The notes under the pieces are model-generated. The model saw only the letters and a program-made list of their open reading frames with translations. It did no database searches and was not told the origin of the DNA. A program made the position numbers and the translations under genes. A DNA stretch of 64,000 nt. Source: a phage. Location of the stretch: the sequence record PZ379074.1, one strand, 5' to 3'. Shown here piece after piece: positions 1 through 25,535 of this stretch (positions are counted from its first letter, which is position 1; the number at the start of each line of letters is the position of its first letter).

Positions 1-1
1 T

Positions 2-553
2 AGCAGCCTTACGTTCTGCGATGGCTTTGCGACGTTCTTCAGCTTCTTTCTTACGCTGTTCTTTCTGCTGTTCTGCAGCTTCTTTCGCCGCAATCTTAGC
101 AGCTTCACGCTCTGCCTTGCGTTTCGCTTTAGCTTCTTCTTTGGCCTTCTCTTTTTCGGCCTTCGCTGCAGCACGGGCTTGATCACGCTCAGCTTTCTTG
201 GCCGCAGCCTGCTCAGCTTTCAGGCGCTTGGCTTCTTCTTTAGCCTTTGCCTTTTCGATTTCTTTTGCTGCTTTAGCGGCTTCACGCTCTGCCTTCTTAG
301 CAGCAGCCTTTTCTGCACGCTCTTTAGCTTTCTTAGCTGCTTCTTCAGCACGCTTCTGAGCCTTCTCATCAGCAGCTTGCTTGCGTTTCAGCGCAGCTTC
401 TTCACGCTTGGCTTGTTTTTCCTGCTCACGCTTCTGGCGTTTTTCTTCGGCTTCTTTCTTTTTAGCCAGGCGTTTTTCTTCAGCCACGCGACGACGTTCT
501 GCTGCAGCTGCTTGTTTTTCTTCTTTAGATAATACTTTGATTGCTTCGGCCAT
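2..553 (-). CDS. Partial CDS (N-terminal part in window, runs off the left edge): Lys/Ala/Glu-rich low-complexity coiled-coil protein
   Basis: Minus-strand ATG at 553 preceded by AAGGA; frame checked open codon by codon to position 2; translation begins MAEAIKVLSKEEKQAAAAERRRVAEEKRLAKKKEAEE; absent from ORF track because there is no stop in the window. Confidence 0.5.
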   Translation of the reverse strand, partial: MAEAIKVLSKEEKQAAAAERRRVAEEKRLAKKKEAEEKRQKREQEKQAKREEAALKRKQAADEKAQKRAEEAAKKAKERAEKAAAKKAEREAAKAAKEIEKAKAKEEAKRLKAEQAAAKKAERDQARAAAKAEKEKAKEEAKAKRKAEREAAKIAAKEAAEQQKEQRKKEAEERRKAIAERKAA

Positions 554-712
554 ATTCACAGTCCTTAAATAAATTAGTTTATTTTATATTCCCCGTTTGG
601 GATAACTTAATTATGCCTTCAGTTGCCGCCAGTAGCAACTAAAAACTATGGCGGCAATGCCACTTTAATTAAACTGATTTTCAGTTTTATTTTTCGTAAA
701 TTTACGTCAACA

Positions 713-1897
713 TTAACGCGCTTTCAAATCACGGTACACGGTCAGATTCTTCTTGGCACGGGTGATAGCGGTGTACATCATCTTGGAGTACGGAACGCCG
801 CGCAAGATTTCTTCCAGCACGCACACATTATCCCACTCGCTGCCTTGCGATTTGTGCACCGTGATTACATAGCCATAGTCCATGCCTCCAACAGCGCGTT
901 GGGCCTCTTTGCGCACTTCCTGATCAGTAGAGAAGGAAAGAGGATTAATCTTAACCTTTATATCTTTACCATCAGTCAATGAACGCAAGTTGACATACAT
1001 TATTTCATTCGACTCATCTTCATCCCTTTCAAAGTCCGGCACTGGCTCATAGCTAATAACAATCCCTTGCTCGCCATTACAGAATCCTGGCCCGTGTTGG
1101 TTGAAGGTGCAAATAACCTTCTCACCGATTCCTGGCATTGGCGTTATACGTCCGCTCACTTGCCGTAATAATGAATTCCATTTATCTTTGGTGCTATTAT
1201 AGGAGCAAATAATTTGATCATCTTCGCCCATGAATTTCTTTAACGCAGTAACGCGCGGCGATTCTGCCAATACTTTGACGTCATCGTATTCACGCGGAGG
1301 AAGTCGGTTGCCTTGGCGCACGAAGAAGGAGGCACGGATGATGTTGGACTCTTTCCCCTGCCGCATGATTTCTGTTAACAGAACGTCAACAGCTTCTTCA
1401 GTAAAGTAGGCGGCGGCTTTTACCGGAGGGACTTGTCCAATGTCGCCTAATGCCAGCACAGGGATGCGGTGATCAAGAAGACGCTCTGTGTCCCACTCGC
1501 CAACCATCGACGCTTCATCGAGTACAACAAGGTGCGGCCTTTCATCCAGCTTTGACTTTCTCGAAAAGATTGGCTTATTGTCGTCATTCACGCCGCGCAC
1601 GTTATAGATGAACTGGTGAAGGGTCTTAGCGCCACGACAGCCTTTTTGCTTTAATCGGCTTGCAGCCTTTCCGGTCGGCGCAATATAGATAGCGCCGTAC
1701 TCACCGACACATCGGCGCACAATCTCGCGAGCAATAGAGGTTTTACCAGTCCCTGCATAGCCAGCAATGAAAAACACGCGCTTCGTCGTTTTACCGTCCT
1801 GCAATCGCTTGTACCATGCAACGGCCTTCTCGATGGCATCGATTTGTTGCGCGTTAAACTGAATCACTGGCTCATCATTAAATTCTGGAATGTTCAT
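713..1897 (-). CDS. SF1 DNA helicase, Dda/RecD-like
   Basis: 394-aa ORF; Walker A GYAGTGKTS, Walker B VVLDEASMV, C-terminal SF1 helicase motifs (VHKSQGSEWD). Confidence 0.85.
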   Translation of the reverse strand: MNIPEFNDEPVIQFNAQQIDAIEKAVAWYKRLQDGKTTKRVFFIAGYAGTGKTSIAREIVRRCVGEYGAIYIAPTGKAASRLKQKGCRGAKTLHQFIYNVRGVNDDNKPIFSRKSKLDERPHLVVLDEASMVGEWDTERLLDHRIPVLALGDIGQVPPVKAAAYFTEEAVDVLLTEIMRQGKESNIIRASFFVRQGNRLPPREYDDVKVLAESPRVTALKKFMGEDDQIICSYNSTKDKWNSLLRQVSGRITPMPGIGEKVICTFNQHGPGFCNGEQGIVISYEPVPDFERDEDESNEIMYVNLRSLTDGKDIKVKINPLSFSTDQEVRKEAQRAVGGMDYGYVITVHKSQGSEWDNVCVLEEILRGVPYSKMMYTAITRAKKNLTVYRDLKAR

Positions 1898-2223
1898 TAT
1901 AACTCCACTACGCTGTCAAGGTCCAGATATACTGGAATAAAATGGCAATCTTCTTTTCGTTCAAACATCTCACCATCAACATGGCTGAAGAAAACAGTTG
2001 TGTTTGGTATCTTCCATCCTTTCTCGTCGCGCACTAAGTACGCCATGGATTCAACAGGGATGTACAGCGATACCGGATTTGCGGCAAAAATAAATTTGAT
2101 TCTGTCTGGTTGACCCAGGAATCGCATGATTGTTAGGCTTGAATTCAATCTTGTATTAAGGAAGGACTCAACGACTCCGACGTGTGTTGCACGTTCGCGT
2201 TGCTTCGTCTCTTTTTCGTTCAT
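1897..2223 (-). CDS. Hypothetical protein
   Basis: 108-aa ORF with 4-nt start/stop overlap to the downstream helicase gene. Confidence 0.45.
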   Translation of the reverse strand: MNEKETKQRERATHVGVVESFLNTRLNSSLTIMRFLGQPDRIKFIFAANPVSLYIPVESMAYLVRDEKGWKIPNTTVFFSHVDGEMFERKEDCHFIPVYLDLDSVVEL

Positions 2224-2326
2224 TTCAGGCGACCTTTGTTAGTGCGGAAATATTTTCTGATAGTATAATTGCAGATATAGTATAAAGCAAAGTAAATCGA
2301 AATTGTGAACTAAATGGTAAATATTG

Positions 2327-2355
2327 TTGACTTTGTATCACTCAATATTATACTG
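2327..2355 (+). promoter_or_regulatory. Sigma70-like promoter candidate (TTGACT, 16-nt spacer, TATACT)
   Basis: Hexamers read directly in the divergent intergenic region upstream of the 2384 gene. Confidence 0.35.
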
Positions 2356-2383
2356 CAGGTATTGATAACCGAAGGAAAGAAAG

Positions 2384-3466
2384 ATGGCTAGTTTAAGAGA
2401 AGAAGCAAAAATAATCGAAGAGTTTTTAACAGAACTCCAAAGAGGCATTCCAGAAGATGAGCGCGTCATGACGGTGTTTGCGCCTGAAGCAACGGTACAG
2501 ACTGACGAGCGCGGCAAGAAGATTAACAGCAGCTTCTGGCCTAAGCCTTGGAAGTTGGGAAAGCCGCTGATGCAACATCAGAACGGTTACGCCTGCATAA
2601 GTTCAATGCGTAAGTCTCCCAACCCAAAGACGGGTGAGATGCGATACTGGCGTACAGAGTCGGCCTTTGGTCACGGCATGGCGATGATGGTCGACGACAT
2701 CGGTCACGGTAAAGGGTCCAAAGGCGATTTAGATTTGGAATTCTTTTTTGAGCGACTGAAGCCGACTGTCATCGTCGAGACTTCACCGAACAACCACCAG
2801 CTTTGGTACTTCTTTAAAGAACCGATTGACCATCTTATTCAGTTCAAAGCGTTCCTTGGGTCTTTCGTTAACATGGTACTCAAGAAGGGCGGCGACAACA
2901 CGATTAAAGACGTAACGCGCGTGGGCCGTGTTCCTGGGTGCATCAACAACAAGCGTGTGACTCACGACGGCCCCTATAAATATGTCGATGAGAACGGCGA
3001 CCCGTTCCGCTGCCGACTTGTCCATGCGGACTACTCATTGCGCTACACCATCGAAGACATTTGTCAGGCATTTGGCTTTCACGTCGTCATGGCGCAAAAG
3101 CGTGAGATTCAAATTGACGTCGATGAATACAAGTATGATGCTGTTTGGTATAAAATAGCCCAGCAGATTCTATCGCGCAACAAAATGGGTGAAGGGTCTG
3201 ATGGCGACGTCATCGAGAACATGTCAGGCAAGTGCCGCATAATCTGTCCTTGGGGTGAAGAACACACCAACGGCGACCCGTATGGCGCTTACTTTCGCGG
3301 CCCTATTCCTGGTGCAGAACATGAGTTTGTGTTCGGTTGCGCCCACGACTGTCACCGGAAAGGGGAAGGCAAGAAAGGTTGGACTGCTTTTGTTGAAGCA
3401 ATCGTCATGCCTTATATTGAGAATCAACTTGACATGATAAATCGTCGTGCAGGTGGCATAAAATAG
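2384..3466 (+). CDS. Putative primase-polymerase-like replication protein with C-terminal Cys/His cluster
   Basis: 360-aa ORF, RBS AAGGAAAG; MMVDDIGHG (DxD-like) and TSPNNHQLWY motifs; C-terminal CPWGEEH...CAHDCH; function is inference only. Confidence 0.5.
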   Translation: MASLREEAKIIEEFLTELQRGIPEDERVMTVFAPEATVQTDERGKKINSSFWPKPWKLGKPLMQHQNGYACISSMRKSPNPKTGEMRYWRTESAFGHGMAMMVDDIGHGKGSKGDLDLEFFFERLKPTVIVETSPNNHQLWYFFKEPIDHLIQFKAFLGSFVNMVLKKGGDNTIKDVTRVGRVPGCINNKRVTHDGPYKYVDENGDPFRCRLVHADYSLRYTIEDICQAFGFHVVMAQKREIQIDVDEYKYDAVWYKIAQQILSRNKMGEGSDGDVIENMSGKCRIICPWGEEHTNGDPYGAYFRGPIPGAEHEFVFGCAHDCHRKGEGKKGWTAFVEAIVMPYIENQLDMINRRAGGIK

Positions 3467-3524
3467 TTTGCTTTTATTTTCATAGCAACTATAATCATTT
3501 TATGAACTGAAGCAGAGGTGATTC

Positions 3525-3671
3525 ATGCAAAGCGAAGAATTGAACATCGAGGTTGAATGTCTGTTAAAGTCGTTAGAACCTAAACCAGCAGAGCTTCCGA
3601 CCCTTCAAGGAGTCATGGCTCACCATCAAGCGGCTGCGGCCCAACACTACTCTGAATTTGTTAAGGAATAA
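3525..3671 (+). CDS. Small hypothetical protein (48 aa)
   Basis: ATG preceded by GAGGTG; packed between flanking genes; below ORF-track size cutoff. Confidence 0.35.
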   Translation: MQSEELNIEVECLLKSLEPKPAELPTLQGVMAHHQAAAAQHYSEFVKE

Positions 3672-3673
3672 AA

Positions 3674-3964
3674 ATGAACGAACCAAAAATGATGACCGTT
3701 GAAGAAGCACAAAATCTTCGTGTTGAAAACGAGCTTAAGCTTGTCAACCAGATTCTTCCTTTGTTTGCAGGCTACGCAGTGGAGGAAGTTGTTGGGGCAA
3801 TCCTTAACGTATCCACGCATGTCGCTATGAATCTTCAGGCCGAACGATTCAATACGCTGCTGACTATTAAAAACCTTACGGTCAGTGCAACGTTCACCGT
3901 TGAGCCAGTCAATTTTGACGAAGCTTCAGCCGCGATTCAACAGCAAAGAGATCAAGAGGTGTAG
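3674..3964 (+). CDS. Hypothetical protein
   Basis: 96-aa ORF, RBS AAGGAA. Confidence 0.5.
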   Translation: MNEPKMMTVEEAQNLRVENELKLVNQILPLFAGYAVEEVVGAILNVSTHVAMNLQAERFNTLLTIKNLTVSATFTVEPVNFDEASAAIQQQRDQEV

Positions 3965-3965
3965 C

Positions 3966-4229
3966 ATGGGTGCTTTCCGTAACGAGTTCACCTGGAACGT
4001 TACCAGCAATCTCTCGACTTGTCCTAACTGTGCAAGCGATGTTATCAAGGTGCGGCAGCATCGCAACGCGGAGGAAGGTGCCTGGGAAGATGGCGACCTT
4101 GTAGAGTGCCAGTGCTGCTCTCATGAAGGCGTTGTGGAGCTTTACGCTGGCGAAGGTTGCCCACCAGCAGAGCGCACAGCACGCGTTGAATGGGATGCAA
4201 CAGACTCCATTGGTGATCCTCAACAGTAA
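3966..4229 (+). CDS. Hypothetical Cys-rich (zinc-ribbon-like) protein
   Basis: ATG at 3966 after AGAGGTG; CPNC ... CQCCSHEG motifs. Confidence 0.5.
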   Translation: MGAFRNEFTWNVTSNLSTCPNCASDVIKVRQHRNAEEGAWEDGDLVECQCCSHEGVVELYAGEGCPPAERTARVEWDATDSIGDPQQ

Positions 4230-4247
4230 ATTTAGGTATAGATACTT

Positions 4248-4352
4248 ATGAAAGCCGTAAAGAAATACACATTAATCATTTCCCTTGTCATCATCCTGGG
4301 GCTATTATATGTATTGGATATGGCATATTATTTGGCAGGGGTGAGTGGATGA
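4248..4352 (+). CDS. Small hydrophobic peptide (34 aa)
   Basis: MKAVKKYTLIISLVIILGLLYVLD: single TM-like segment; ATGA overlap with next gene. Confidence 0.3.
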   Translation: MKAVKKYTLIISLVIILGLLYVLDMAYYLAGVSG

Positions 4353-4639
4353 ATATTGTAATTCTTTATGGTGAAAATATCAGCGATGACGACATCGAAG
4401 TTGCCGTTGATGTTTACGGTATCGATGAGGTGAAACGTGTTGAAGAAATTAGTGGCGCAAATCTCAATGAGATTGTCAAAGAAGCTGGCTGTCCTTCGGA
4501 AGAGATTCTGGTGGTTACTAACGATGACCTGTCTTCTATGGATCATTTGCGCCGCATCTTCACCGATTGCCAATACCTTCATGCTGTTCAATCAGTAAAC
4601 AAATTGAGAAAGGCATACGCCAACCAATTTCCTTGCTGA
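4349..4639 (+). CDS. Hypothetical acidic protein
   Basis: 96-aa ORF, translationally coupled. Confidence 0.5.
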   Translation: MNIVILYGENISDDDIEVAVDVYGIDEVKRVEEISGANLNEIVKEAGCPSEEILVVTNDDLSSMDHLRRIFTDCQYLHAVQSVNKLRKAYANQFPC

Positions 4640-4775
4640 TAGTTCACCAGTTATATTGCTTTAAATTGAGTTTTACTATATTAATATACAACGCCAGAAA
4701 TCTGGCGTTTATTTACCGCACCCTGAAAGGATATATCCATGCAACAATATAACAAAGCCGTATCAGGAGGATTAA

Positions 4776-6446
4776 ATGTCAATTGAACATGACAATCTTC
4801 CAGAGGATACAGGTGATGAATTTGGTGCAATCTTTGACGAAATTCAAGACGCTGGTGTTTCAGAAGAGATGCAAGCGGCAGAGCAGCAAGGCACCAGAGC
4901 TAAAATCAGCCTCCAGCATAAGGCTGTTGAGAAAGATGCAGAGCGCATGGAATGCTACGGTGAAGAAGACTTGGTTGAAAGAGCACGCTTGCTCGCCTCA
5001 CTTCAGGTAATCAAGTTCCCTCACTACAAGCCTACCAAAGATGACTTCGTTCTACAGGCAGACCGGACGAGTGACATGAACCGTTATGCGGTTTTCGACG
5101 CGTTGTTTGATAAGGGAAGTGGCATTGTTCCATTCCCTCACAAAGATACTTTTCGTGGGCGCTTAGTCGACCATCGCGGCGAAACATTCACTGACCGTAC
5201 CTTGGAAGTCACAGAGATAGTTGCCGCTGTCGACGCAGCAGGACTGTCTAACCCAAACTCACGTCAGGTCGCTCAATCCTATAAGGAATGGGCCATGCGT
5301 TATCAGCGCGACGACCTGATGGACTTCTTCTACAAGAAGCTTCCTGAATGGGACGGTACTGCGCGCATTGAAAAATACCTTATCGAGCTATTCCGACCGT
5401 TCGATACAGAGTTAAACCGACAAATCGGTGTGTATTTTTGGCTATCGCTCTACAACCGCCTGACAAACCCTGGATGTCAAGCGCCAATCTCCATCGCGCT
5501 CATCGGCGGCCAGAACGCAGGGAAGAGTTATTTTAGTAAGCTACTTTGCGAAGCTATTATGAACGACCGCCACGCAACACCGATTCCGTTGAACTTGGCC
5601 GCGCAGAACTTCAACCCGTTCTTGCGAGCTATTACGGGTCGCTCAATTATCGCGAACGTTGGCGAGATGACAGGCTTTAAAAAGGCTGACATCGAAAACA
5701 TGAAAGCATTCCTGACTAAGACGGAAGATGACCTGGACTTCAAATTTGAAGATACGCAGGTGAAACCACGCCAGTGGATTGCTATCATGGACGGCAACGA
5801 ATACGCAGGCATGCAGCGTGACGACACAGGCAACCGTCGTGTGTACCCTATCTTTGTTGGCCAACTCGCTGACAAGGACGGGCAACCGAACTGGTCCAAA
5901 GACTTCCAAGCTGACCTTTCCACTTTGAAAGAAGACGTTTGGCAGTTGATGGCTGAGTGTGCTGCGTGGATGGAGAAGCACGGTGAAGCAGGTTACAACG
6001 CGTTTGTTGGTGAAACATCTCGCATGCTTACTGAGTTCAGTAAAAACGAAATGGAACGCGCTCGCGGCGTTATCCGTGATGAGATGGTGGACAACGACCT
6101 TGTTGAAGTCGTCATCACCGCGCCTTATGACCGACATCACAGCGGACGCTGGCACATCACCAGTGGTGCTATTGCTATGGGATTCAGAGCGAAATGCGGC
6201 AAGTCGCCTTTCTCTCGTACCCTTGCGCCGCACATGTCAAAGCTTGGCTTTGAGCCTGCTACCTATCGCAACCAGCGCGGTTACTTTACGCCGCTGATTA
6301 AGAATGAAGCAGGGGAATACATTTCTGATTTGATGACTATCTTAGCGTATCTTATCCGCGACGAGTCTGACCCTGAAGATATTGAATTCTTGAAGAAGGT
6401 TATTGAACGCAAACGTTCTTTAGGAAGAGATAAGGATGAATTCTGA
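4776..6446 (+). CDS. P-loop NTPase, VirE/primase-associated helicase-like
   Basis: 556-aa ORF with strong RBS AGGAGG; Walker A GGQNAGKS; position downstream of the primase-polymerase-like gene. Confidence 0.7.
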   Translation: MSIEHDNLPEDTGDEFGAIFDEIQDAGVSEEMQAAEQQGTRAKISLQHKAVEKDAERMECYGEEDLVERARLLASLQVIKFPHYKPTKDDFVLQADRTSDMNRYAVFDALFDKGSGIVPFPHKDTFRGRLVDHRGETFTDRTLEVTEIVAAVDAAGLSNPNSRQVAQSYKEWAMRYQRDDLMDFFYKKLPEWDGTARIEKYLIELFRPFDTELNRQIGVYFWLSLYNRLTNPGCQAPISIALIGGQNAGKSYFSKLLCEAIMNDRHATPIPLNLAAQNFNPFLRAITGRSIIANVGEMTGFKKADIENMKAFLTKTEDDLDFKFEDTQVKPRQWIAIMDGNEYAGMQRDDTGNRRVYPIFVGQLADKDGQPNWSKDFQADLSTLKEDVWQLMAECAAWMEKHGEAGYNAFVGETSRMLTEFSKNEMERARGVIRDEMVDNDLVEVVITAPYDRHHSGRWHITSGAIAMGFRAKCGKSPFSRTLAPHMSKLGFEPATYRNQRGYFTPLIKNEAGEYISDLMTILAYLIRDESDPEDIEFLKKVIERKRSLGRDKDEF

Positions 6447-13830: not shown

Positions 13831-14363
13831 TGGGCGGCTTTTGGCGTAAAGCTAAATACTCTAAAGACTTGCATTACTTCTTGGATAATGAAGGCATAAG
13901 TATATGTGGCAGGTACAGAAGGGATAATGAATCAGCGTCGCAAAGTAATAAGGCTGAATGGTTACTCAAGGAAGAGTGCAAAGTTTGCCGCAAACGTTTT
14001 TGTGACAAAACCAGCATGACTGATTACATAAAGGAGCTTAGAAAAAGATGCAAAAGCCCGCAAGAGTTTGCCATAACTCTTTGGGATGATCACCCTGAGT
14101 TGAGAAGTGAATGGTTAAAGACTGATGCAATCAATTACATCTTCAAATCGAAATACAGGACGACAGCAAGATATAAAATGGATGAAGCAGTAATTCAAAA
14201 GGTATTTTCTTATTGGAGGGATACAGTCGATATTGTGAAAATAAAGAAATACCAAAACGAAGTGCTGCTGGAATTGGAGAGGATTGGCTATAAAGTCACC
14301 AATAAAATGATAAAAGAAGAAATAAAAAGGAGAACGGAAAAGGGGTTGATGCCTAAGATATAG
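13827..14363 (+). CDS. Hypothetical Cys-rich basic protein
   Basis: 178-aa ORF, RBS AAGGAGG; CGRY ... CKVCRKRFC. Confidence 0.55.
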   Translation: MMGGFWRKAKYSKDLHYFLDNEGISICGRYRRDNESASQSNKAEWLLKEECKVCRKRFCDKTSMTDYIKELRKRCKSPQEFAITLWDDHPELRSEWLKTDAINYIFKSKYRTTARYKMDEAVIQKVFSYWRDTVDIVKIKKYQNEVLLELERIGYKVTNKMIKEEIKRRTEKGLMPKI

Positions 14364-14599
14364 TGAATAAACGAACACCGTTTACGTGTTTTGAAGAATG
14401 GAATGTGTACAATGGGTCGCTTTATGCGGCCTTTTGTTGTTTGGGTCGTGTTTTGCGATGGAATAATTATGAGGTTGTGTTTTATTTATTAATTGTGCGG
14501 AAATATTTAGAAATATATTTCATAGGTCGTGTCTATTGGTCCGTGGTGTTTGTTAGGACTTATCTATGGATTGAAATTTTAGTGTCGTGAAACGTGGTG

Positions 14600-15060
14600 T
14601 TTGAACACATTTGATACGCGTAAAATACGGCTAAAAATTAAGCGTATCATGGCTGCAGGCCGCGCCGTTACTGAGTTCCTATTTTCAAAAGTGGTACACC
14701 CTTACGGATGATACGTCATGGTTTTTTATCCGTATCAGTGTACAGCCCTTGCCGCGCCTGGCCTGTACATTAATCTTACGGATGATACGGATAAAACTGG
14801 GCACCATTATATATATAATTTGAAAAATTAATTAACTCCATTTTAAAAACATTTAAATTATTTTTTTCATATCCTCATACTTATGTTAATTTATATATTT
14901 AACGTATCATCCGTAAGATATAAGTAAAAACAAAGACTTGCGGCAATACGGATGATACGTTATGATACGCTTCGACCAGCCAGCAGCGGCTAAGTCATTG
15001 ATTTGCATAACAAGCAGCGAAAGGGATGGATTTCTTTTATCCGTATCAAACAGTACACCA
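14600..15060. repeat. Iteron-like locus A: inverted and direct copies of CGGATGATACG around an AT-rich core
   Basis: CTTACGGATGATACG at 14701 and 14775; TTATCCGTATCA at 14727 and 15037; inverse copy at 14902; ACGGATGATACGTTATGATACG at 14948; AT-rich core 14808-14900; TACGCGTA at 14614. Confidence 0.6.
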
Positions 15061-15198
15061 CGCACCACGGTCCGTTATCCATTCAGCACTATGATTTGTG
15101 TACGTTTATAGCCATAATGAACATCAATCTGCACTTGAATATAATGTCCATCCATTGTATAATTCACACTATTAATTTGCACTATGGGATTTTGCACT

Positions 15199-15672
15199 AT
15201 GAGTCAAGATTATGTAGCGATGCCTGAAGACTTTGAAGACCCGCGATTTGCAGAGCACAATCAGGCTTTATTCGATGAGTTCATTGACCTTGTTATTCAG
15301 GGCCATGACATGCGCGCAGCTTTTGCACTAGTATTTGGAATGGAAGTTGCAACGGATAACTACACTGGCCAGCGAATCCTTTGCGCGCAACGCAATCCAT
15401 ACTACAAGATGCGCTTCAAAAAGCGTATGGAAGAGATGCCACTCAAGGATTTGTGGAGCGTAAAAGGTGCAATTCACAATTTGGTCAAGCTTGTGCGTGA
15501 TCCAGAAGTCGCGGCGTCAGCCAAACTTAATGCTATTCGTGAACTGAATATCATCTACGGCATCACGATGATTGATGAAAACGGCAATAGTAAAATGGGC
15601 CGTTCCATGGACGATTTCTACAAGGATTTTGGAGAGGCGGCCAAAGAAGGTGAGCAATTCTCCCGCCACTAG
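15199..15672 (+). CDS. Hypothetical protein (157 aa); ATG embedded in an 11-mer copy
   Basis: ORF MSQDYVAMPEDFEDPRF...; no obvious SD; start codon is the ATG of TTTGCACTATG. Confidence 0.45.
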   Translation: MSQDYVAMPEDFEDPRFAEHNQALFDEFIDLVIQGHDMRAAFALVFGMEVATDNYTGQRILCAQRNPYYKMRFKKRMEEMPLKDLWSVKGAIHNLVKLVRDPEVAASAKLNAIRELNIIYGITMIDENGNSKMGRSMDDFYKDFGEAAKEGEQFSRH

Positions 15673-15691
15673 CCAATTTGCACTATAAAAC

Positions 15692-15725
15692 GGCCCTAGA
15701 ACACATTTTCTCCACTTCTAGGGCC
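15692..15725. other. Perfect 10-bp inverted repeat (GGCCCTAGAA / TTCTAGGGCC) with 14-nt loop
   Basis: Read directly; immediately after the 15199..15672 stop and an 11-mer copy; no clear U-tract on plus strand. Confidence 0.4.
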
Positions 15726-16100
15726 ATCGGTAATACGACGGGGAAGGTTACAACCATAAACGCGTTATAAAGTGTATTATTATAAGTCATCTTTTAGTCA
15801 CTTTCCGTAACAATTTACGACCTTCAACCGTCCAATCGAACGACTCCACCAGCAGATTTGCACTATAACCTAAGACTACCCGACCTTTCTCGTTATCGAC
15901 CCGCCAGCAAGTCTCGAATAGCATCTTATTTGCACTATTAACTATCGCCGCAACTCGCGTAGGATAAGCGCAATTTGCACTATGGTCATAAAGGGATAAG
16001 GTGCGACCACTTCCGATGGACAACGTAGCGATGAGAATGAGCGTATTCATAAGCCACCAATTTGCACTATGAAAAGCGACCCCGAAGGGCCGCCATTCTA

Positions 16101-16727
16101 TTAGATAATCTGGAAGGTGTAGGACTTGTTGCCGAACTCAAAGTTCAAGCGCCCAGCTTCCTTAAGCTTCATGCGGAAGCGAATGTGTTTGCTATCCGGC
16201 AAGCCCAGCGCGGCGAACGCTACGCGGACCGATTTGAACTCGCCTACACCCTCGACCATGACACCGTTACGGGTGAGACGCTTTTGCGCCACTTCCTTAT
16301 TATCCCAGCTTTTTGCAATACCTTCGCTATTCGAACGGCGATGGGAAGGAGTTCCATTTTGCACTACGCAATTTGCACTATCGTTTAAACCGCTCTTAAC
16401 GAAGGCTTCATATTCTTCGTCGGTCATCGCGTCGAGTTCTTCCTGGGTCGGCTCAGCCTTTTTAACGACCGCACGCGCCTTATGCGTTTTTACATCGCTG
16501 GACACTTCCTCGCGCGGCTTCGCGTCGGGAATGGGCGATTCGTTGGACGGCTCATCGAGCGCGTTTAAGGACTCGATTAACGCGATTACGCGAGTCTCGG
16601 CGGTCCGGCGGTCCGCGAATTTCTTAATCGGCTTCGAACCGGAATTTGCATTATAAAATGCAACGAGGTCGGCGGTCTTAGTTGCGATAACGTCGCCGCT
16701 AGTAGAAAAGCGATTTAAGCTAACCAT
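16101..16727 (-). CDS. Hypothetical protein; 5-prime half CpG-rich, 3-prime half of ordinary composition
   Basis: 208-aa ORF with minus-strand RBS AGGAG in context CTAGGAGTTTATTATG; contains two 11-mer copies at the composition change. Confidence 0.55.
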   Translation of the reverse strand: MVSLNRFSTSGDVIATKTADLVAFYNANSGSKPIKKFADRRTAETRVIALIESLNALDEPSNESPIPDAKPREEVSSDVKTHKARAVVKKAEPTQEELDAMTDEEYEAFVKSGLNDSANCVVQNGTPSHRRSNSEGIAKSWDNKEVAQKRLTRNGVMVEGVGEFKSVRVAFAALGLPDSKHIRFRMKLKEAGRLNFEFGNKSYTFQII

Positions 16728-16807
16728 AATAAACTCCTATTTGTTAGGGCGCTAGGCGCGAAAGAATTTTATTAAAGCGCCGCGCACGACGCTCTAAAAA
16801 TCCTCTC

Positions 16808-17122
16808 TTACTCTTCGTCGTCTTCGATTAATTCGAGGGCGAAGGCGTAAGCTTTGCTATCGTAATTAACTAAAACGGCGAGTTCGAACTCGTTAATAAA
16901 CGCCGTTTTACCGCATAAATTTAATTCCGCATCGACTTCGAAGAATCCGTTTTCGTCGCGCTCTAAGCGAGAAGCAGCGAGTTGCTCGATTACCGTCGCG
17001 TCGTTAATTTCTTCGCCTAAGCGAACGCCGGAGAATTTAGCGAGAATTTCGCCGTAAGTAAGCGTAACGCCCTGGACTTCGGCGGTTGCGTTTTCGAGGG
17101 TAAAGCGGGTAACGATAGCCAT
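16808..17122 (-). CDS. Small acidic hypothetical protein (104 aa, C-terminus ELIEDDEE)
   Basis: RBS context CTAGGAGTTTATTATG; CpG-rich codon usage. Confidence 0.55.
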   Translation of the reverse strand: MAIVTRFTLENATAEVQGVTLTYGEILAKFSGVRLGEEINDATVIEQLAASRLERDENGFFEVDAELNLCGKTAFINEFELAVLVNYDSKAYAFALELIEDDEE

Positions 17123-17346
17123 AATAAACTCCTAGTTGGGAGAGGCGTTAACGACCTATTCGTTAACTCATCCCGTCCCGATATGAGTACATTATAATAT
17201 AGTGTAGAAAAAAGTAAAGCACTTTTTCGATAAAAATGCGATAAATTATTTTATCTTTTTTCTTTACTTCTTCGTACACTCGCGTATACTTGTTTATATC
17301 GAGACGGGCGATGTCCCTTTCTTCTACTAGCATCGGGAGCTTTATT
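17123..17346. promoter_or_regulatory. Divergent intergenic control region with repeated TTTATATCGAGA(C/G)GGG elements and TATAAT-like hexamer
   Basis: CTTTACTTCTTCGTACACT plus TTTATATCGAGA repeated at 17255-17300 and 17660-17700; inverted copies of AAAGTAAAGCACTTTTTCG at 17212 and 17648. Confidence 0.4.
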
Positions 17347-17649
17347 ATGACTACTTTAATCTCTTCCATCCTTACTTACGACGAAGACCGCTTAACCGTT
17401 CGCTCTCTTATCGCCGCCGTTAACGCGGAACTAGAATCTAGCGCCATTAAGGTCCGCGCGGTCGCCTTCATCGGCCTTTCCTTCGACGATATGAAGTATG
17501 CCGAACGTAGCGCTATCCGCTTCGCGAAGACCGACGACGAAGCCGTTACCCTTATCGAGACGGTTACGCCGCGCGACGAAGCGTTAATTATCGTCGAGTA
17601 TATCGACGTAGAAGGCGATAAGGCTTATAAATATTTTATCGCAGAATAA
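17347..17649 (+). CDS. Small acidic hypothetical protein (100 aa)
   Basis: ATG at 17347 after GGGAGCTTTATT; CpG-rich. Confidence 0.55.
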   Translation: MTTLISSILTYDEDRLTVRSLIAAVNAELESSAIKVRAVAFIGLSFDDMKYAERSAIRFAKTDDEAVTLIETVTPRDEALIIVEYIDVEGDKAYKYFIAE

Positions 17650-17756
17650 CGAAAAAGTGCTTTACTTCTTCGTACACTAAGACTATAATGTTTTATATCG
17701 AGAGGGGATGAGGTAGCGAATAGGTCGCTACCCTCCCGACCAACTAGGAGATTATT

Positions 17757-18047
17757 ATGATTACTTTAGCCGCTATCCGTAACGCTCGCGCCGAAACTTC
17801 CGAAAACTCTAACGTATTTGGCGAAAAACTTAAAAACGTTTATCTCTTTAACGTAGATGCGACTATCGAGGAGCTTCATAGTCCTATCGATTTTAGCGAA
17901 TTTACGGAACTCGAAGAGGAAGATATTTCTACTTTCCGCGTTACTATCGAAGGCAAGGTTTATTTTGCTACGGAGTTCGGCGGCGAATATCTCGCGGTAT
18001 CCGAAGGCGAAGGCCGTTACTCTTTCTTTAAAATCGTCTCCTTATAA
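17757..18047 (+). CDS. Small acidic hypothetical protein (96 aa)
   Basis: RBS context CTAGGAGATTATTATG preceded by hairpin GTAGCGAATAGGTCGCTAC. Confidence 0.55.
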   Translation: MITLAAIRNARAETSENSNVFGEKLKNVYLFNVDATIEELHSPIDFSEFTELEEEDISTFRVTIEGKVYFATEFGGEYLAVSEGEGRYSFFKIVSL

Positions 18048-18049
18048 TA

Positions 18050-18758
18050 CCCTTCCGTTACTAATAGGCCGCGCTTAGTCGCGGCTTTTCTTCGTCCCTA
18101 TCCCGATGCGCGTCTACGCGAAAACTCCTTTATCCTTCCCTTCGTCGTCGCATAATCTTCTTCGAGATGCTCCTTAGTTCGCATAACAGGTATTACGTTA
18201 AATGGAGAACATCGCGTAAGTCCTTGTTTTATATAGACACCTATATCGGACCGTTAGGGCGGGTCGCGTAAGTCGTTGTTTTATAAAGGCGCAAAACTTT
18301 CCCTTCGTTCCGAACTAAAACGAGGAATATGCCGACCCTTCGTCCGAAAATAGTATGCATGCGAAATTACATGCATCTAGAATAATCCCCACCGATATTA
18401 TCCTACACGCAATCATTCGCTTTCGAATCATTATGCTTCATATTATTATGCATCGAATCATTCTCTTTCGAATTGTAACGCTGGAAACTGTAACGGCGAT
18501 TGATTATTGCGTTCGTGTGGTTTTTAGGGCATGGGTCTTTTGGTGCGTTTTGCTACTTGATGAAATTTGCGGTACACTAATCAAAATACGACACATTTGG
18601 TCCACTAACTTTTCAAAGAAAAAGTCCTAGACAGTACCGTACTATTTTGCACCCACAGGAAATTTGCAGTACACTCCTGCGCGGCAGGCAAAATAAAGGG
18701 CCGCACTAAGCGACCCACTAAGCGACCCACGATTCACGGTTAAAGCAACATCCACCCA
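18050..18758. repeat. About 700 bp without a convincing ORF, rich in short direct repeats
   Basis: CGCGTAAGTCNTTGTTTTATA x2 (18216, 18267); CGAATCATT x3 (18420-18470); TGTAACG x2; ATTTGC(A/G)GTACACT x2 (18563, 18662); ACTAAGCGACCC x2 (18705-18730). Confidence 0.4.
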
Positions 18759-19139
18759 CTATTCACTCTTATGGGCATCACCAAAGCCATCCGCAATCTG
18801 GCTGATCAATGATTCAATGGACACAGTTTTACCAATTGATCGAGCGGTAATAGCAAGCATATTATCAATCAAACCACGATTGACTGCATATGTTCCAGGT
18901 TTTGACTCATCTTCAGAACAACCAAAAAGCTGGTCGCGCAGACTTTCAAGAGAACGCTCAATATTTTCCAACTTCTCTTCTAAATCGGATTGGCGACGTA
19001 AAACCCATGTCAAGTCACGGTTGCCAACTTCCAATCCATCAGAATAGCAAGGTGGAGCGTCAATTTTGATGCTGGAACCAAAAGCAATGCCGCTGCCTTT
19101 AGTATGTGTGTGGCTCATAGAATCATTTTTATTTGACAT
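18759..19139 (-). CDS. Hypothetical protein
   Basis: Start taken at internal ATG 19139 (MSNKND...) with AAAGGTAA upstream; track ORF extends to 19205. Confidence 0.5.
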   Translation of the reverse strand: MSNKNDSMSHTHTKGSGIAFGSSIKIDAPPCYSDGLEVGNRDLTWVLRRQSDLEEKLENIERSLESLRDQLFGCSEDESKPGTYAVNRGLIDNMLAITARSIGKTVSIESLISQIADGFGDAHKSE

Positions 19140-19236
19140 ATCATTACCTTTAATATTTGGGTGATTAATAATAACTATAATAAAGCCGCATGGCGCGCCA
19201 TTCAAATCGGTTTATTAATTGTAACGATTGGATTCA

Positions 19237-19431
19237 TCAATCGATACCAACTGAGCCGATGTGCTGAAAGAATTCTGAATAAACTTCCTTCCAGTACTTG
19301 CGCGCAGCTTTCTGGGCTTGCCCTTTGCGCTTGTAGCTTTTACCTTGGAAAATGAAACGGTCGTTTGCTGCGTTATACTCCACCACACCTTCCAGCCATT
19401 GTAAGAATGCTACTGATTCATTTTTATTCAT
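19237..19431 (-). CDS. Hypothetical basic protein
   Basis: 64-aa ORF, RBS GAGGT. Confidence 0.5.
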   Translation of the reverse strand: MNKNESVAFLQWLEGVVEYNAANDRFIFQGKSYKRKGQAQKAARKYWKEVYSEFFQHIGSVGID

Positions 19432-19438
19432 GTTAACC

Positions 19439-19834
19439 TCAATATTTTAATAAGAAAGTACCCAACCAACTTTCCTCAATCTCGCGGCCAGTAGCCACAC
19501 GGTCGGTCTTGGCTATGGGTCTGGATTCGCCGCAGGGCAATCCGTCTTGTAGTTGTGTACTATTGCCAATTCTCACCAGAACCTTTCCATCAGGGTCGAT
19601 ATAAGCGCGACAACCCATGATTTCGAGTCGTTGTAGACACTGGCGAATCGTTTTCAGCTTCTCACCGGACCGGATAGAGCGCGGTCGCGACCGCTGACCG
19701 TTTTTATTCACTGTACGCTTGAAAACCGGAATATCATTGGTGCGTTGCGGCTTGGGTCGGTAATAAGCCTCTTCGCCAGGAGTTGCACCTGGTGTCAGTT
19801 CGCGCTTAAGCGCCTTTTCAATATCAATGATCAT
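19439..19834 (-). CDS. Hypothetical basic protein
   Basis: Start uncertain (19834 or 19906); Arg/Lys-rich. Confidence 0.4.
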   Translation of the reverse strand: MIIDIEKALKRELTPGATPGEEAYYRPKPQRTNDIPVFKRTVNKNGQRSRPRSIRSGEKLKTIRQCLQRLEIMGCRAYIDPDGKVLVRIGNSTQLQDGLPCGESRPIAKTDRVATGREIEESWLGTFLLKY

Positions 19835-24074: not shown

Positions 24075-25535
24075 ATGAATAAAATATTAACACATAATTG
24101 GAAAGTCATGTACCAGTTGAATCCTGCTTTAAGAGAAGTCTGGAAGACGAAGGCGCGATACAAAGTTATATACGGCGGTCGTGCATCTTCCAAATCGCAT
24201 GATGCCGCTGGTTTTGCTATTTATTTGGCGGCAAACTTTAAATTAAAATTCCTTTGCGTTCGACAATTCCAGAACAAGATTTCTGAATCAGTATATACGC
24301 TATTAAAAGACAAAATAGAAATTTCTGATTTCAAAGACGAGTTCAACTTATTAAAGAACTCTATTGAACACAAAAGAACAAAATCTGAATTTTTATTTTA
24401 CGGTATCGCACGCAACGTTGACGAAATCAAATCAACAGAAGGTGTTGATGTTCTTTGGCTTGAAGAAGCGCATGCACTGACTGAAGAGCAATGGGACATT
24501 ATTGAGCCGACAATTCGTAAGGAAGGGTCCGAAATATGGATCATATTTAACCCTGATGAAGAGGCTGATTTCGTCTACCAGAACTTTGTCATGCGACCGC
24601 CGAAAAATGCCATCGTTAAGAAGATTAACTGGCAGGACAATCCATTCTTGTCGCAAACAATGCTGGATGTTATCGCTGGCATGTATGAGCGCGACCCGAA
24701 AAAGGCAGAACACGTTTATGGCGGAGTGCCGAAGACAGGCGGCGATAAGTCGGTCATCAACCGTGCATTCGTCAAAGCCGCGCTAAACCTCCACAAACAC
24801 CCTACGCTGGGATGGAGCTTGTCAGGGTCTAACCGTATAGGCTTCGACGTGGCGGACGACGGCGACGACTTAAACGCCACAGCATTTGTCACAGGCAACG
24901 TATTACGTGGCATCAAGACATGGGAAGGTCTGGAAGATGAATTGCTTAAGTCCGCAAGCGGAGTTTGGAAAGACGCATTGACATTCGGCGCGTCAATTAC
25001 CTATGACGCCATCGGTGTCGGTGCATTTGCTGGTTCAAAATTTGATGAGCTCAATGAGTATGCAATACATGAAAATCCAACATTCCCAAGAATCGAATTT
25101 AATGCGTTCAACGCGCAAGGTGCTGTTGATGATCCTGATGACGTTTTCCTTGAGTTACCACACGTTGAAATACTCAATAAAGACCATTTCGCAAACATAA
25201 AAGCGCAAAAATGGACTGAGATTGCCGAACGATTCAGAAAGACATATGAGTATGCGACAGGGCAAGCCGCATATCCGACCGATGAGTTGATTTCCATCGA
25301 CACAGACGGCATTCCAGAACTTGGGATTCCTGCTTGGTCTGCGGAAGAAATTGAGACGTTTCTTTTTGAGATGTCAGCGCCGCGCAAAGACACGTCTGTT
25401 CTTGGTAAGTTCAAAGTTGAATCGAAAAAGGATATGGCAAAGCGTGGAGTTAAATCGCCTAACAAAGCGGACGCCGCAATCATGGCATTGATGAAACCAA
25501 TTGTTGCAGCATCCGGCTTCTTCTCTAACCTTTAA
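24075..25535 (+). CDS. terL: Terminase large subunit
   Basis: 486-aa ORF; Walker A-like GGRASSKS near N-terminus, acidic nuclease-type C-terminal half; first in the morphogenesis module. Confidence 0.8.
   Translation: MNKILTHNWKVMYQLNPALREVWKTKARYKVIYGGRASSKSHDAAGFAIYLAANFKLKFLCVRQFQNKISESVYTLLKDKIEISDFKDEFNLLKNSIEHKRTKSEFLFYGIARNVDEIKSTEGVDVLWLEEAHALTEEQWDIIEPTIRKEGSEIWIIFNPDEEADFVYQNFVMRPPKNAIVKKINWQDNPFLSQTMLDVIAGMYERDPKKAEHVYGGVPKTGGDKSVINRAFVKAALNLHKHPTLGWSLSGSNRIGFDVADDGDDLNATAFVTGNVLRGIKTWEGLEDELLKSASGVWKDALTFGASITYDAIGVGAFAGSKFDELNEYAIHENPTFPRIEFNAFNAQGAVDDPDDVFLELPHVEILNKDHFANIKAQKWTEIAERFRKTYEYATGQAAYPTDELISIDTDGIPELGIPAWSAEEIETFLFEMSAPRKDTSVLGKFKVESKKDMAKRGVKSPNKADAAIMALMKPIVAASGFFSNL

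Follow-up and report, generated by a model that had tools for sequence, protein, structure and literature searches.

A polar array of short repeats around the small terminase gene of a Wifcevirus, and its possible recognition by TerS

What reads a short repeat that is found in a single orientation close to one end of a phage genome? The question is raised by the 11-mer ATTTGCACTAT in the window, the whole 64-kb stretch of DNA that was analyzed, whose source phage is a Wifcevirus, an E. coli myovirus. Within 15175-16654 this box is present in seven exact copies, two copies with one mismatch, and one copy with two mismatches, all on the plus strand. Neither exact nor one-mismatch copies are found on the minus strand or elsewhere in the 64 kb. 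One hundred dinucleotide-preserving shuffles gave a mean of 1.9 copies and a maximum of six, and none reached the nine exact and one-mismatch copies observed. The GCACTA hexamer core occurs 11 times on the plus strand and not at all on the minus strand of a 2.2-kb stretch, compared with 13 times, both strands summed, in the other 61.8 kb. The first-pass annotation had described a same-orientation array of this word, and these counts bear it out. The irregular spacing that it reported is also seen, with successive core copies 14 to 355 bp apart. Its rejection of a CRISPR holds, since the conserved word is only 10-11 bp long and the spacings vary, whereas CRISPRs have repeats of 23-50 bp at near-constant spacing.

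The array lies in the direct terminal repeat (DTR) at the left end of the genome. By homology the DTR spans 14840..18622, with a right limit that is uncertain between about 18540 and 18622. In phage WFC the CDS at 361-834 is repeated as the CDS at 69049-69522, which gives a repeat of 3784 bp. Positions 1-3673 of phage Mansfield are annotated as a "direct terminal repeat predicted by PhageTerm," and the start of that record corresponds to position 14840 of the window. A terminal repeat of about 3.7 kb has also been reported (Korf 2019, PMC6563267). When Logan contigs of about 3.8 kb were compared with these limits, one end of one contig coincided with 14840 and the rest gave no match. Judged from WFC and Mansfield, about 335 bp separate the first full box from the left end of the genome, and the box is within the repeat of about 3.7 kb. 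Positions 14000-19500 gave no match in Rfam at E <= 1, indicating that no known RNA element is present there.

The gene at the center of the array probably encodes the small terminase subunit. The 157-aa plus-strand ORF at 15199..15672 matches the small terminase 7uxe_A by phmmer (E = 7.3e-34, residues 3-147), and its ortholog in Mansfield is annotated as terS. An AlphaFold2 (AF2) model of the protein has a pLDDT of 86.8, and its best PDB match by Foldseek is again 7uxe_A, the TerS of phage E217 (PDB 7UXE; probability 1.00, TM 0.70 on the target), followed by the TerS proteins of PaP3 and NV1. The protein is thus assigned to the E217 type. The large terminase belongs to Terminase_3 and matches Sf6 gp2 at E = 1.6e-64. 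Phages of the P22-like pac class, to which Sf6 belongs, have their recognition site in or next to terS. A predicted sigma-70-like promoter, TTGAAT-17-TATAAT (15135..15163, plus strand), agrees with the consensus at 10 of 12 positions and is directly upstream of terS and the first two full copies of the box.

Relative to the terS start codon the array spans -113 to +1455, all of it on the plus strand. Two degenerate copies are on its left side: TTCAGCACTAT (15082..15092) has an intact GCACTA core, and ATTCACACTAT (15162..15172) is invariant in 11 Wifcevirus genomes. An exact copy at 15175..15185 occupies about +5 to +15 from the predicted transcription start of terS. It is followed by the one-mismatch copy TTTTGCACTAT at 15190..15200, first placed at 15189, which ends with the AT of the terS start codon. 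The two-mismatch copy TTTTGCACTAG (15321..15331) is within terS, where it falls on the codons for A-F-A-L-V; its counterparts are at +126 in lineage L173 and +120 in phage Kyle. Four bp past the terS stop codon is an exact copy (15676..15686) that abuts a hairpin read from the sequence, GGCCCTAGAA...TTCTAGGGCC (15692..15725), which is followed by GTTTTATAGTGCAAAT on the minus strand. This hairpin is the terminator of the convergent minus-strand genes, and WFC carries an annotated terminator at this place.

The remaining copies overlap or adjoin these two minus-strand genes. The first is an 87-aa ORF (15787..16050) with a signal-peptide-like N-terminus. It has a homolog in Kylevirus (Kyle gp2; BLASTP, 29% identity, E = 2e-11), and tblastn finds matches in Kyle and PA1. 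Three exact copies are inside it and encode its S-A-N motifs: 15856..15866, which is fused to a reverse-complement Chi site at 15846; 15928..15938, which encodes N-S-A-N and corresponds in position, by homology, to Kyle +723 and PA1 +740; and 15973..15983. Another exact copy (16060..16070) is between the start of this ORF and the stop of the second gene, and abuts a terminator hairpin at 16076-16093. The second gene (16101..16727) encodes a 208-aa protein and is found beside terS throughout the Pbunavirus-Wifcevirus supergroup. The protein has no PDB match in a profile search and no Pfam family, and its single-sequence AF2 model is unusable (pLDDT 39). Its gene contains three copies instead of the two counted at first: the two-mismatch copy TTTTGCACTAC (16357..16367, originally reported as a copy starting at 16355 with a single mismatch), an exact copy at 16371..16381, and the one-mismatch copy ATTTGCATTAT (16644..16654), which is variable among Wifcevirus genomes. 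The first two share a variable linker and are missing in the subclade of ECML-117, RCIP0319, and Ro157lw, in which a patch of the gene has been replaced exactly at their site. Similarly, TTTGCACTATG is read by four copies (15176, 15191, 15974, and 16061), where three had been listed.

The boxes are maintained as DNA. They are placed in non-coding DNA, in plus-strand coding sequence, and in different frames of minus-strand genes, and the array persists in lineage L175, where no small ORF is called; the constraint therefore acts on the DNA. Within Wifcevirus the boxes are 99.2% conserved compared with 94.7% for their flanks, a difference that is not decisive by itself because divergence in the genus is too low. 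More distant relatives show the same array. From 7 to 14 copies are found around terS and on its strand in Kyle, PA1, L173, L174, L175, L179, and L180, and three copies are found in the truncated contig L181. TerS identity between these lineages and the window is only 41-68%, and the flanking DNA does not align with the window. Across lineages the box reads aATT(T/c)GCACTA(T/c), with 10-11 conserved bp, and neighboring copies can be as close as 12-15 bp. T(T/C)GCACTA is confined to the DTR copies in the whole Kyle genome. Thus the search in related phages that had been proposed shows the core recurring on one strand around terS in further lineages. No relevant mention of the motif turned up in a search of full-text literature. 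Among the matches listed, viral contigs with two spaced TTGCACTA words contained unrelated coding repeats, a CRISPR-like array, and tandem repeats.

The distribution of the array follows the phylogeny of TerS. In a neighbor-joining tree all array-bearing TerS proteins form a single clade, and the array is present in nine of nine sampled lineages of this clade and in none of eight lineages outside it. No comparable array was found in Pbunavirus, Myosmarvirus, XcP1, Maja, Gekk3-15, or L176-L178, all of which have homologous TerS proteins. An apparent GGTCTT array in Pbunavirus proved to be lysine-threonine codon bias inside the homolog of the 208-aa protein. The array-bearing TerS proteins share the signature (Q/K/R)-R-N-P-Y-Y, while all eight array-less relatives have an acidic and a variable residue there (E-x-N-P, or D-A-D-P in Gekk3-15). 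The AF2 model places the signature pair, Q64-R65, at the C-terminal end of a helix formed by residues 56-65, which comes after a helix at 38-46. The link between clade and array is weak evidence for recognition, because it has a single evolutionary origin and any clade-specific protein would correlate equally well.

Our leading interpretation, which we hold tentatively, is that the boxes are a pac-like recognition array for TerS that would double as an operator for the promoter and 5' UTR of terS. The array, its polarity, its conservation as DNA, its place with respect to terS and the end of the genome, and its restriction to one TerS clade are observed; we infer that TerS is the binder and that binding serves both packaging and autoregulation. 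In the left part of the terminal repeat the boxes together would form a dispersed, polar recognition region that corresponds to a pac site or to cosB of lambda. The gene that the array surrounds would supply TerS rings, which would bind the boxes on concatemeric DNA and mark the terminal repeat as viral. Bound TerS would then direct the Sf6-like large terminase to the limits of the repeat, where it would cut. Copies stand between a consensus-like TATAAT -10 element and the terS ATG in the window (two) and in L173 (three, in tandem); from these positions TerS may repress its own synthesis and keep a dose-sensitive protein at a low level. In accord with dose sensitivity, overexpression of TerS reduces the infectivity of E217 (PMC9611059). 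Among the functions first suggested for the repeats, terminase recognition is best supported, by the predicted TerS ORF, the distance of about 335 bp from the left end within the DTR, and the restriction to one TerS clade. An operator is also plausible. A promoter for a phage polymerase is not supported, and the only positive sign of module-boundary recombination is the lineage-specific patch in the 208-aa gene.

Known terminase sites provide a partial precedent. R1-R3 of lambda cosB, the pacL and pacR boxes of SPP1, and the hexamer repeats of P1 pac are all terminase recognition repeats, and those of SPP1 extend across the terS promoter and the 5' coding region. Like these, the boxes are short words in and next to terS, close to the mapped end where packaging would cut, and unique in the genome. 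Unlike them, the boxes number 10-14 copies over 1-1.5 kb, with one orientation and no phasing, and they are inside a 3.7-kb terminal repeat of a phage with fixed ends; moreover, their binding by TerS is a prediction. The SPP1 and P22 sites are summarized in a review (PMC9611059).

Several observations count against recognition by TerS. E217 TerS shows no appreciable DNA binding in vitro, and sequence-specific binding is weak or absent for most of the TerS proteins with solved structures (PMC9611059). Eight lineages with homologous TerS have no comparable array, and the span of 1-1.5 kb is much larger than that of classical pac or cosB sites. Genus-specific inverted repeats are found right at the genome terminus and could be the true terminase site. 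No helical phasing was detected among 66 spacings from seven lineages (Rayleigh p 0.5-0.9, and 0.47-0.76 for periods of 10-11 bp), which speaks against a decameric ring with DNA wound around it in register. Positions turn over between lineages, and together with the lack of phasing this suggests that the number and density of sites outweigh their exact position.

A different sequence-specific protein is a somewhat unlikely alternative reader of the boxes. It could be an early phage protein, such as the 208-aa neighbor, or a host factor, and would coat the first 1.8 kb or so of the repeat, with the effect of shutting off the left-end early promoter, forming a roadblock where transcription converges, or shielding the entering end. 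Copies at +5 to +30 of a strong sigma-70-like promoter fit this proposal, as do the several strong sigma-70-like promoters of the DTR, which are typical of early regions, and the concentration of the array in the convergent zone of terS and the minus-strand genes, beside two terminator hairpins. The 208-aa gene always adjoins terS, but its product is conserved in all of the array-less relatives. Phylogenetic profiling also gives no candidate, since the ORFs common only to Wifcevirus and Kyle include no recognizable DNA-binding protein. Compared by eye, the box matches none of the consensus sequences for the E. coli sites considered (marbox, DnaA box, NtrC half-site, IHF, and sigma-54), nor the T4 MotA box or EcoKI.

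Two further proposals have a low probability. According to the first, the boxes would be origin iterons for the primase-helicase or another initiator. The type I octamers of phage P4 ori and crr are dispersed iterons of this kind, and they resemble the boxes in being short, asymmetric, numerous, and irregularly spaced direct repeats. An AT-rich segment (14800-14900) is about 300 bp to the left of the array, and in distant relatives terS comes immediately downstream of the primase/helicase gene, past a non-coding gap of about 0.7-0.9 kb. However, these relatives lack boxes and have homologous primases. The primase/helicase gene of the window (4776-6446) is 8.7 kb from the array, with no initiator gene adjacent. 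In every array-bearing lineage the array is centered on terS rather than on the gap between primase and terS. Regular or helically phased spacing is absent, and unlike the P4 iterons most copies are within transcribed coding DNA.

According to the second, which we consider equally improbable, the boxes would be a polar, Chi-like signal for an enzyme that translocates along DNA near the left end. The enzyme could be a host or phage helicase-nuclease involved in end processing and in the formation of concatemers by recombination, or the packaging motor, for which the boxes would announce an approaching end as cosQ does; many copies would raise the chance of capture. The strict polarity, the lack of phasing, and the turnover of positions with numbers maintained agree with this, and so does the presence of true Chi sites. 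Kyle, PA1, L174, L175, L179, L180, and L181 have two to nine Chi sites (CCACCAGC, plus strand) interleaved with their boxes, and array-less Myosmarvirus has four to five at the equivalent place. All of the Chi clusters of relatives are oriented to be active for RecBCD entering from the left end, following the orientation rule in PMC12315714. The same source describes terminally clustered Chi sites in P1 and the lambdoid phage LLS. Like the boxes, such clusters are polar, multi-copy, near one genome end, and free in position, and clusters of true Chi occupy the same 2 kb as the boxes, with the same polarity, in Kylevirus and several metagenomic relatives. The box itself is not a Chi site: its reverse complement, ATAGTGCAAAT, is neither Chi (5'-GCTGGTGG-3') nor a known Chi variant. 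We know of no enzyme that reads it. The two kinds of array are separable, since L173 has boxes and no Chi and the window has a single exact Chi in its DTR (CCACCAGC, 15846..15853, plus strand). Also, the GCACTA box is tied to one TerS clade, whereas Chi is tied to the host, and tandem copies over the terS promoter and ATG resemble operators more than signals for a translocase.

A role as phage-specific promoters, read by a modified host polymerase or by an RNA polymerase of the phage, is highly improbable. As had been pointed out at first, the CACTAT core is loosely similar to part of the promoters of the T7 group; it also has some likeness to a weak -10 element, and several copies are followed by TATAAA or TATAAC. 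However, promoters for a single-subunit polymerase would be expected to have about 20 conserved bp instead of 10-11, and copies only 12-15 bp apart or overlapping the terS ATG are poorly suited to this role. The motif is confined to 1.5 kb and absent from all other transcription units, and most copies would direct rightward transcripts that run antisense to the local genes. No phage RNA polymerase was found when the 64 kb were surveyed by ORF and PHROG, in agreement with the first-pass annotation. Nor does the box show the -35 and -10 hexamers, 16-18 bp apart, of a sigma-70 promoter: a promoter scan places sites beside the boxes and not inside them, and by inspection the TG does not have the register that an extended -10 element requires. 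Equally implausible are junctions for module exchange or a by-product of repeated peptide coding, for although copies flank gene ends at 15676 and 16060, the lineage-specific patch in the 208-aa gene lies exactly at two copies, and S-A-N recurs in the 87-aa ORF, the copies use several frames, both coding strands, and non-coding DNA, the array is kept in L175 without a called ORF, and the other copies are not at mosaic breakpoints.

Short repeats near terminal repeats are found in other phages as well. The SRL and SRR of T7 and T3, attributed to Dunn and Studier, are reportedly arrays of short direct repeats beside the terminal repeat with a poorly defined function. They resemble the boxes in being irregular, same-orientation repeats near the ends of a phage with terminal repeats, kept as a feature between relatives. 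The T7 arrays have a 7-bp word and are outside a 160-bp repeat, whereas the boxes have a 10-11 bp word and are inside a 3.7-kb repeat around terS.

To return to recognition by TerS, a stronger form of it can be stated, although we regard it as doubtful. The boxes may be the first identified DNA target of a decameric, E217-type TerS, acting as a polar, density-dependent signal instead of a nucleoprotein scaffold with a fixed form. While moving through the terminal repeat, the packaging machinery would read many unphased, same-orientation sites in the way that RecBCD reads the Chi sites interleaved with them, and the array would be a cosQ- or pac-like mark of the genome end. To our knowledge, no DNA target is yet known for this structurally solved family. 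The clade described here combines a close homolog of solved structure with a defined candidate target of 10-11 bp, aATTTGCACTAT, in 7-14 copies. The array-less relatives provide a natural comparison set in which two residues differ (E-x compared with K/Q/R-R) on a predicted helix of the N-terminal region. Together these make specific recognition directly testable. If it is confirmed, it would be relevant to the definition of ends in phages whose terminal repeats are kilobases long. The question also has a practical side, since Wifcevirus and its Pbunavirus relatives are candidates for phage therapy.

The position, orientation and conservation of a repeated 11-mer, ATTTGCACTAT, tentatively suggest that it forms a recognition array for the small terminase (TerS) and doubles as an operator on terS, which is the best-supported reading. 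The window belongs to a Wifcevirus, an E. coli myovirus with 92-97% identity to WFC, Mansfield, ECML-117 and the BASEL phages Bas98-101. Seven exact copies (boxes) and two with one mismatch are present, all on the plus strand and inside 15175-16654. No others are found in the 64 kb, and shuffled sequence averages 1.9 copies and never exceeds 6. Weaker plus-strand boxes occur at 15082, 15162 and 15321. Within 2.2 kb the plus strand has 11 copies of the core GCACTA and the minus strand none, against 13 in total on the two strands of the other 61.8 kb. The copy list of the first-pass annotation is correct overall, with small offsets (15190, not 15189), but its plus-strand copy at 16357 carries two mismatches. 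ATG ends four copies, not three, and the minus-strand CDS contains three, not two.

The array has at its centre a gene for a protein that recognizes DNA, and this is one reason for the TerS reading. The 157-aa ORF at 15199-15672 is the small terminase: it matches TerS of Pseudomonas phage E217 (PDB 7UXE, E = 7.3e-34), and its Mansfield ortholog is annotated terS. Its AlphaFold model (pLDDT 86.8) has E217 TerS as the sole significant structural match, followed by PaP3 and NV1 TerS. The large terminase is a Terminase_3 protein that matches Sf6 gp2 (E = 1.6e-64). A consensus-like sigma-70 promoter, TTGAAT-17-TATAAT, lies just 5' of terS at 15135-15163, placing boxes 15175 and 15190 at about +5 to +30 of the transcript; box 15190 overlaps the terS ATG. 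In the metagenomic lineage L173, three tandem boxes follow TATAAT, so that here too the terS promoter and 5' UTR are covered, which also supports a TerS array and operator. TerS dosage is critical, and excess TerS reduces E217 infectivity (review PMC9611059).

The array is unique in the genome and confined to one TerS clade, and both facts favor TerS recognition. In 11 Wifcevirus genomes the intergenic boxes are 99.2% conserved versus 94.7% for their flanks. The subclade of ECML-117, RCIP0319 and Ro157lw lacks the three boxes of the 208-aa gene (16101-16727, minus strand), showing that sites turn over. Other genera provide stronger evidence of conservation than Wifcevirus alone. Pantoea phage Kyle (Kylevirus; TerS 43% identical to that of the window) has almost no DNA similarity to the window, a 3603-bp repeat and a terS start at 357. 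It carries 14 plus-strand GCACTA cores at 477-1478, and T(T/C)GCACTA is absent from its whole 73-kb genome outside the two repeat copies. PA1 (TerS 41%) has 13 plus-strand cores, and the metagenomic lineages L173 (68%), L174 (52%), L175 (51%), L179 (47%), L180 (54%) and L181 (47%, a partial contig) have 10, 9, 9, 7, 11 and 3. None of these phages and lineages has a minus-strand core in the array region. The pooled consensus of 73 sites is a-A-T-T/c-T/c-G-C-A-C-T-A-T/c. A comparable array is absent near the homologous TerS genes of Pbunavirus, Myosmarvirus (Hera, TropicalSun), XcP1, Maja, Gekk3-15 and three metagenomic lineages (L176-L178). Every array-bearing TerS falls in one clade of a neighbor-joining tree; the correlation reflects a single evolutionary origin. 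In this clade (Q/K/R)-R directly precedes a conserved NPYY, and array-less TerS proteins have an acidic and then a variable residue at the same pair (E-x; D-A in Gekk3-15). In the AlphaFold model the pair is Q64-R65 and closes helix 56-65, which comes after helix 38-46; we infer that helix 56-65 reads DNA.

The closeness of the array to a mapped terminus also argues for TerS recognition. WFC has a 3784-bp direct terminal repeat, since its CDS 361-834 recurs at 69049-69522, and Korf et al. (PMC6563267) give about 3.7 kb. The Mansfield annotation has a PhageTerm-predicted repeat at 1-3673, and that record begins at window position 14840. By homology, the window's repeat would span about 14840 to 18540-18622, with the array in about its first 240-1815 bp. 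Plus-strand primases (2384-6446) and small plus-strand ORFs (up to 14363) come before it; minus-strand small genes, a tail fibre, the large terminase (24075-25535), structural genes and minus-strand replication genes follow. The L181 contig begins 359 bp 5' of terS, and the 3755-bp Logan contig of P0128, which is of terminal-repeat size, has terS at 351-833. Both assemblies, which are independent, break some 350-360 bp before terS, in agreement with a physical end conserved at that distance in other members of the clade.

The right end and interior of the repeat have further elements. Around the right boundary (18395-18482, 18548-18675) there are two 43-nt repeats with core GAATCATT, and the inferred boundary is flanked by a 31-nt direct repeat. 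At the equivalent place (L004 3419-3650) Kyle carries GAATGATT/TAATCATT repeats; CAGTACACTAATCA is common to window 18571-18584 and Kyle 3634-3647, in otherwise unalignable DNA. The elements AAATTTGC(G/A)GTACACT resemble a box split by 4 bp. Just past the boundary Mansfield has tandem CGACCCA(C) units (L003 ~3890-3935), and the window, at 18712-18737, has no more than two or three units, all degenerate. Inside the repeat, 65-nt inverted arms (17120-17184 and 17695-17759, 82% complementary) carry a region with a promoter and a ribosome-binding site twice, once in each orientation. The result is strong, divergent sigma-70-like promoters at 17191-17218 (minus), 17263-17290 (plus) and 17661-17689 (plus), as expected for an early region with two copies per genome.

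Several points count against TerS recognition. E217 TerS did not bind DNA in vitro (review PMC9611059). Compared with classical pac or cosB sites, the array is much more spread out, and it is unphased (10-11 bp phasing is absent, p 0.47-0.76). It is possible, if unlikely, that another DNA-binding protein coats or silences the left end. Genus-specific inverted repeats also lie right at the left terminus, and it may be these that signal the true cut site. The left boundary (about 14840; region 14701-14962) is inside an AT-rich quasi-palindrome at 14823-14866, with inverted copies of CTTACGGATGATACG and TTTTATCCGTATCA on either side, and each related genus has an inverted repeat of its own at the corresponding position (Kyle L012 5451-5693; Hera L007 3441-3517; Maja L009 3499-3786). 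Such repeats could be a terminase cut-site signal or an origin; that the boxes themselves are origin iterons is improbable. In an unrelated viral contig (L142 421-640, GC 0.52), TTTCTTGCACTAC occurs five times on one strand, irregularly spaced within 220 bp; this iteron-like array shares the word TTGCACTA, probably by coincidence.

Chi sites share the region with the boxes. CCACCAGC, the reverse complement of Chi (GCTGGTGG), is clustered on the plus strand in the same 2 kb, and all clusters share the strand of terS and lie no more than about 2 kb from the left end of the genome. According to the rule as given in PMC12315714, sites oriented in this way are active when RecBCD enters from the left end, and terminal Chi clusters are already known in P1 and lambdoid phages (PMC12315714). 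Kyle has nine copies in its left cluster (L004 255-1972) and four more on the plus strand of the ~66 kb of unique sequence that remains; a further nine plus-strand matches belong to the second repeat copy. There are seven copies in PA1 (L011 2465-4037), 7, 6 and 5 in L174, L175 and L180, and four to five in the array-less Myosmarvirus (L007 3737-4833, L008 4487-4992). In Kyle, PA1, L174, L175 and L180, the terS promoter spacer contains one Chi (about -53 to -62). The window has a single exact Chi, 15846-15853, fused to a box, and near-Chi words including CCACTAGC (15666) and CCGCCAGC (15901). That boxes and Chi sites share this location marks the left 2 kb as a zone of polar cis signals and keeps alive the idea, itself rather improbable, that the boxes are a polar signal for a translocating enzyme. 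L173, with boxes but no Chi, nevertheless shows that the two arrays can be separated.

Some boxes are non-coding, some fall within terS codons and others are read in two or more frames of minus-strand genes (S-A-N, V-V-Q, L-V-Q); in Kyle one supplies a stop codon, and L175 keeps the array where no small ORF is called. The constraint thus acts on DNA rather than on a peptide. Codon periodicity in the spacing is weak (p 0.016), and it is very improbable that the boxes are a coding by-product or the recombination junctions suggested in the first-pass annotation. The proposed phage promoter is just as improbable; no RNA polymerase gene was seen in the window's gene layout. Boxes 15676 and 16060 adjoin two hairpins that terminate convergent minus-strand genes (sequence; WFC annotation). 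The 87-aa ORF (15787-16050, minus) has a signal-peptide-like N-terminus and is conserved only in array-bearing phages among those sampled (Kyle gp2, 29% identity; PA1); the ORF probably encodes a genuine protein, small and either secreted or membrane-bound. The 208-aa protein has a conserved N-terminal KKFADRxTAExR, a variable linker, which contains two boxes in Wifcevirus, and a C-terminal domain that is conserved (SKHIRFRMxLK). The protein has no relative in Pfam or the PDB, and its gene adjoins terS throughout Pbunavirus, Myosmarvirus, Wifcevirus, Kylevirus, XcP1 and Gekk3-15. A literature search found no mention of the motif, and the Wifcevirus papers examined do not describe it. The array may be kin to known repeat arrays associated with terminases or genome termini, with a putative function of this kind.
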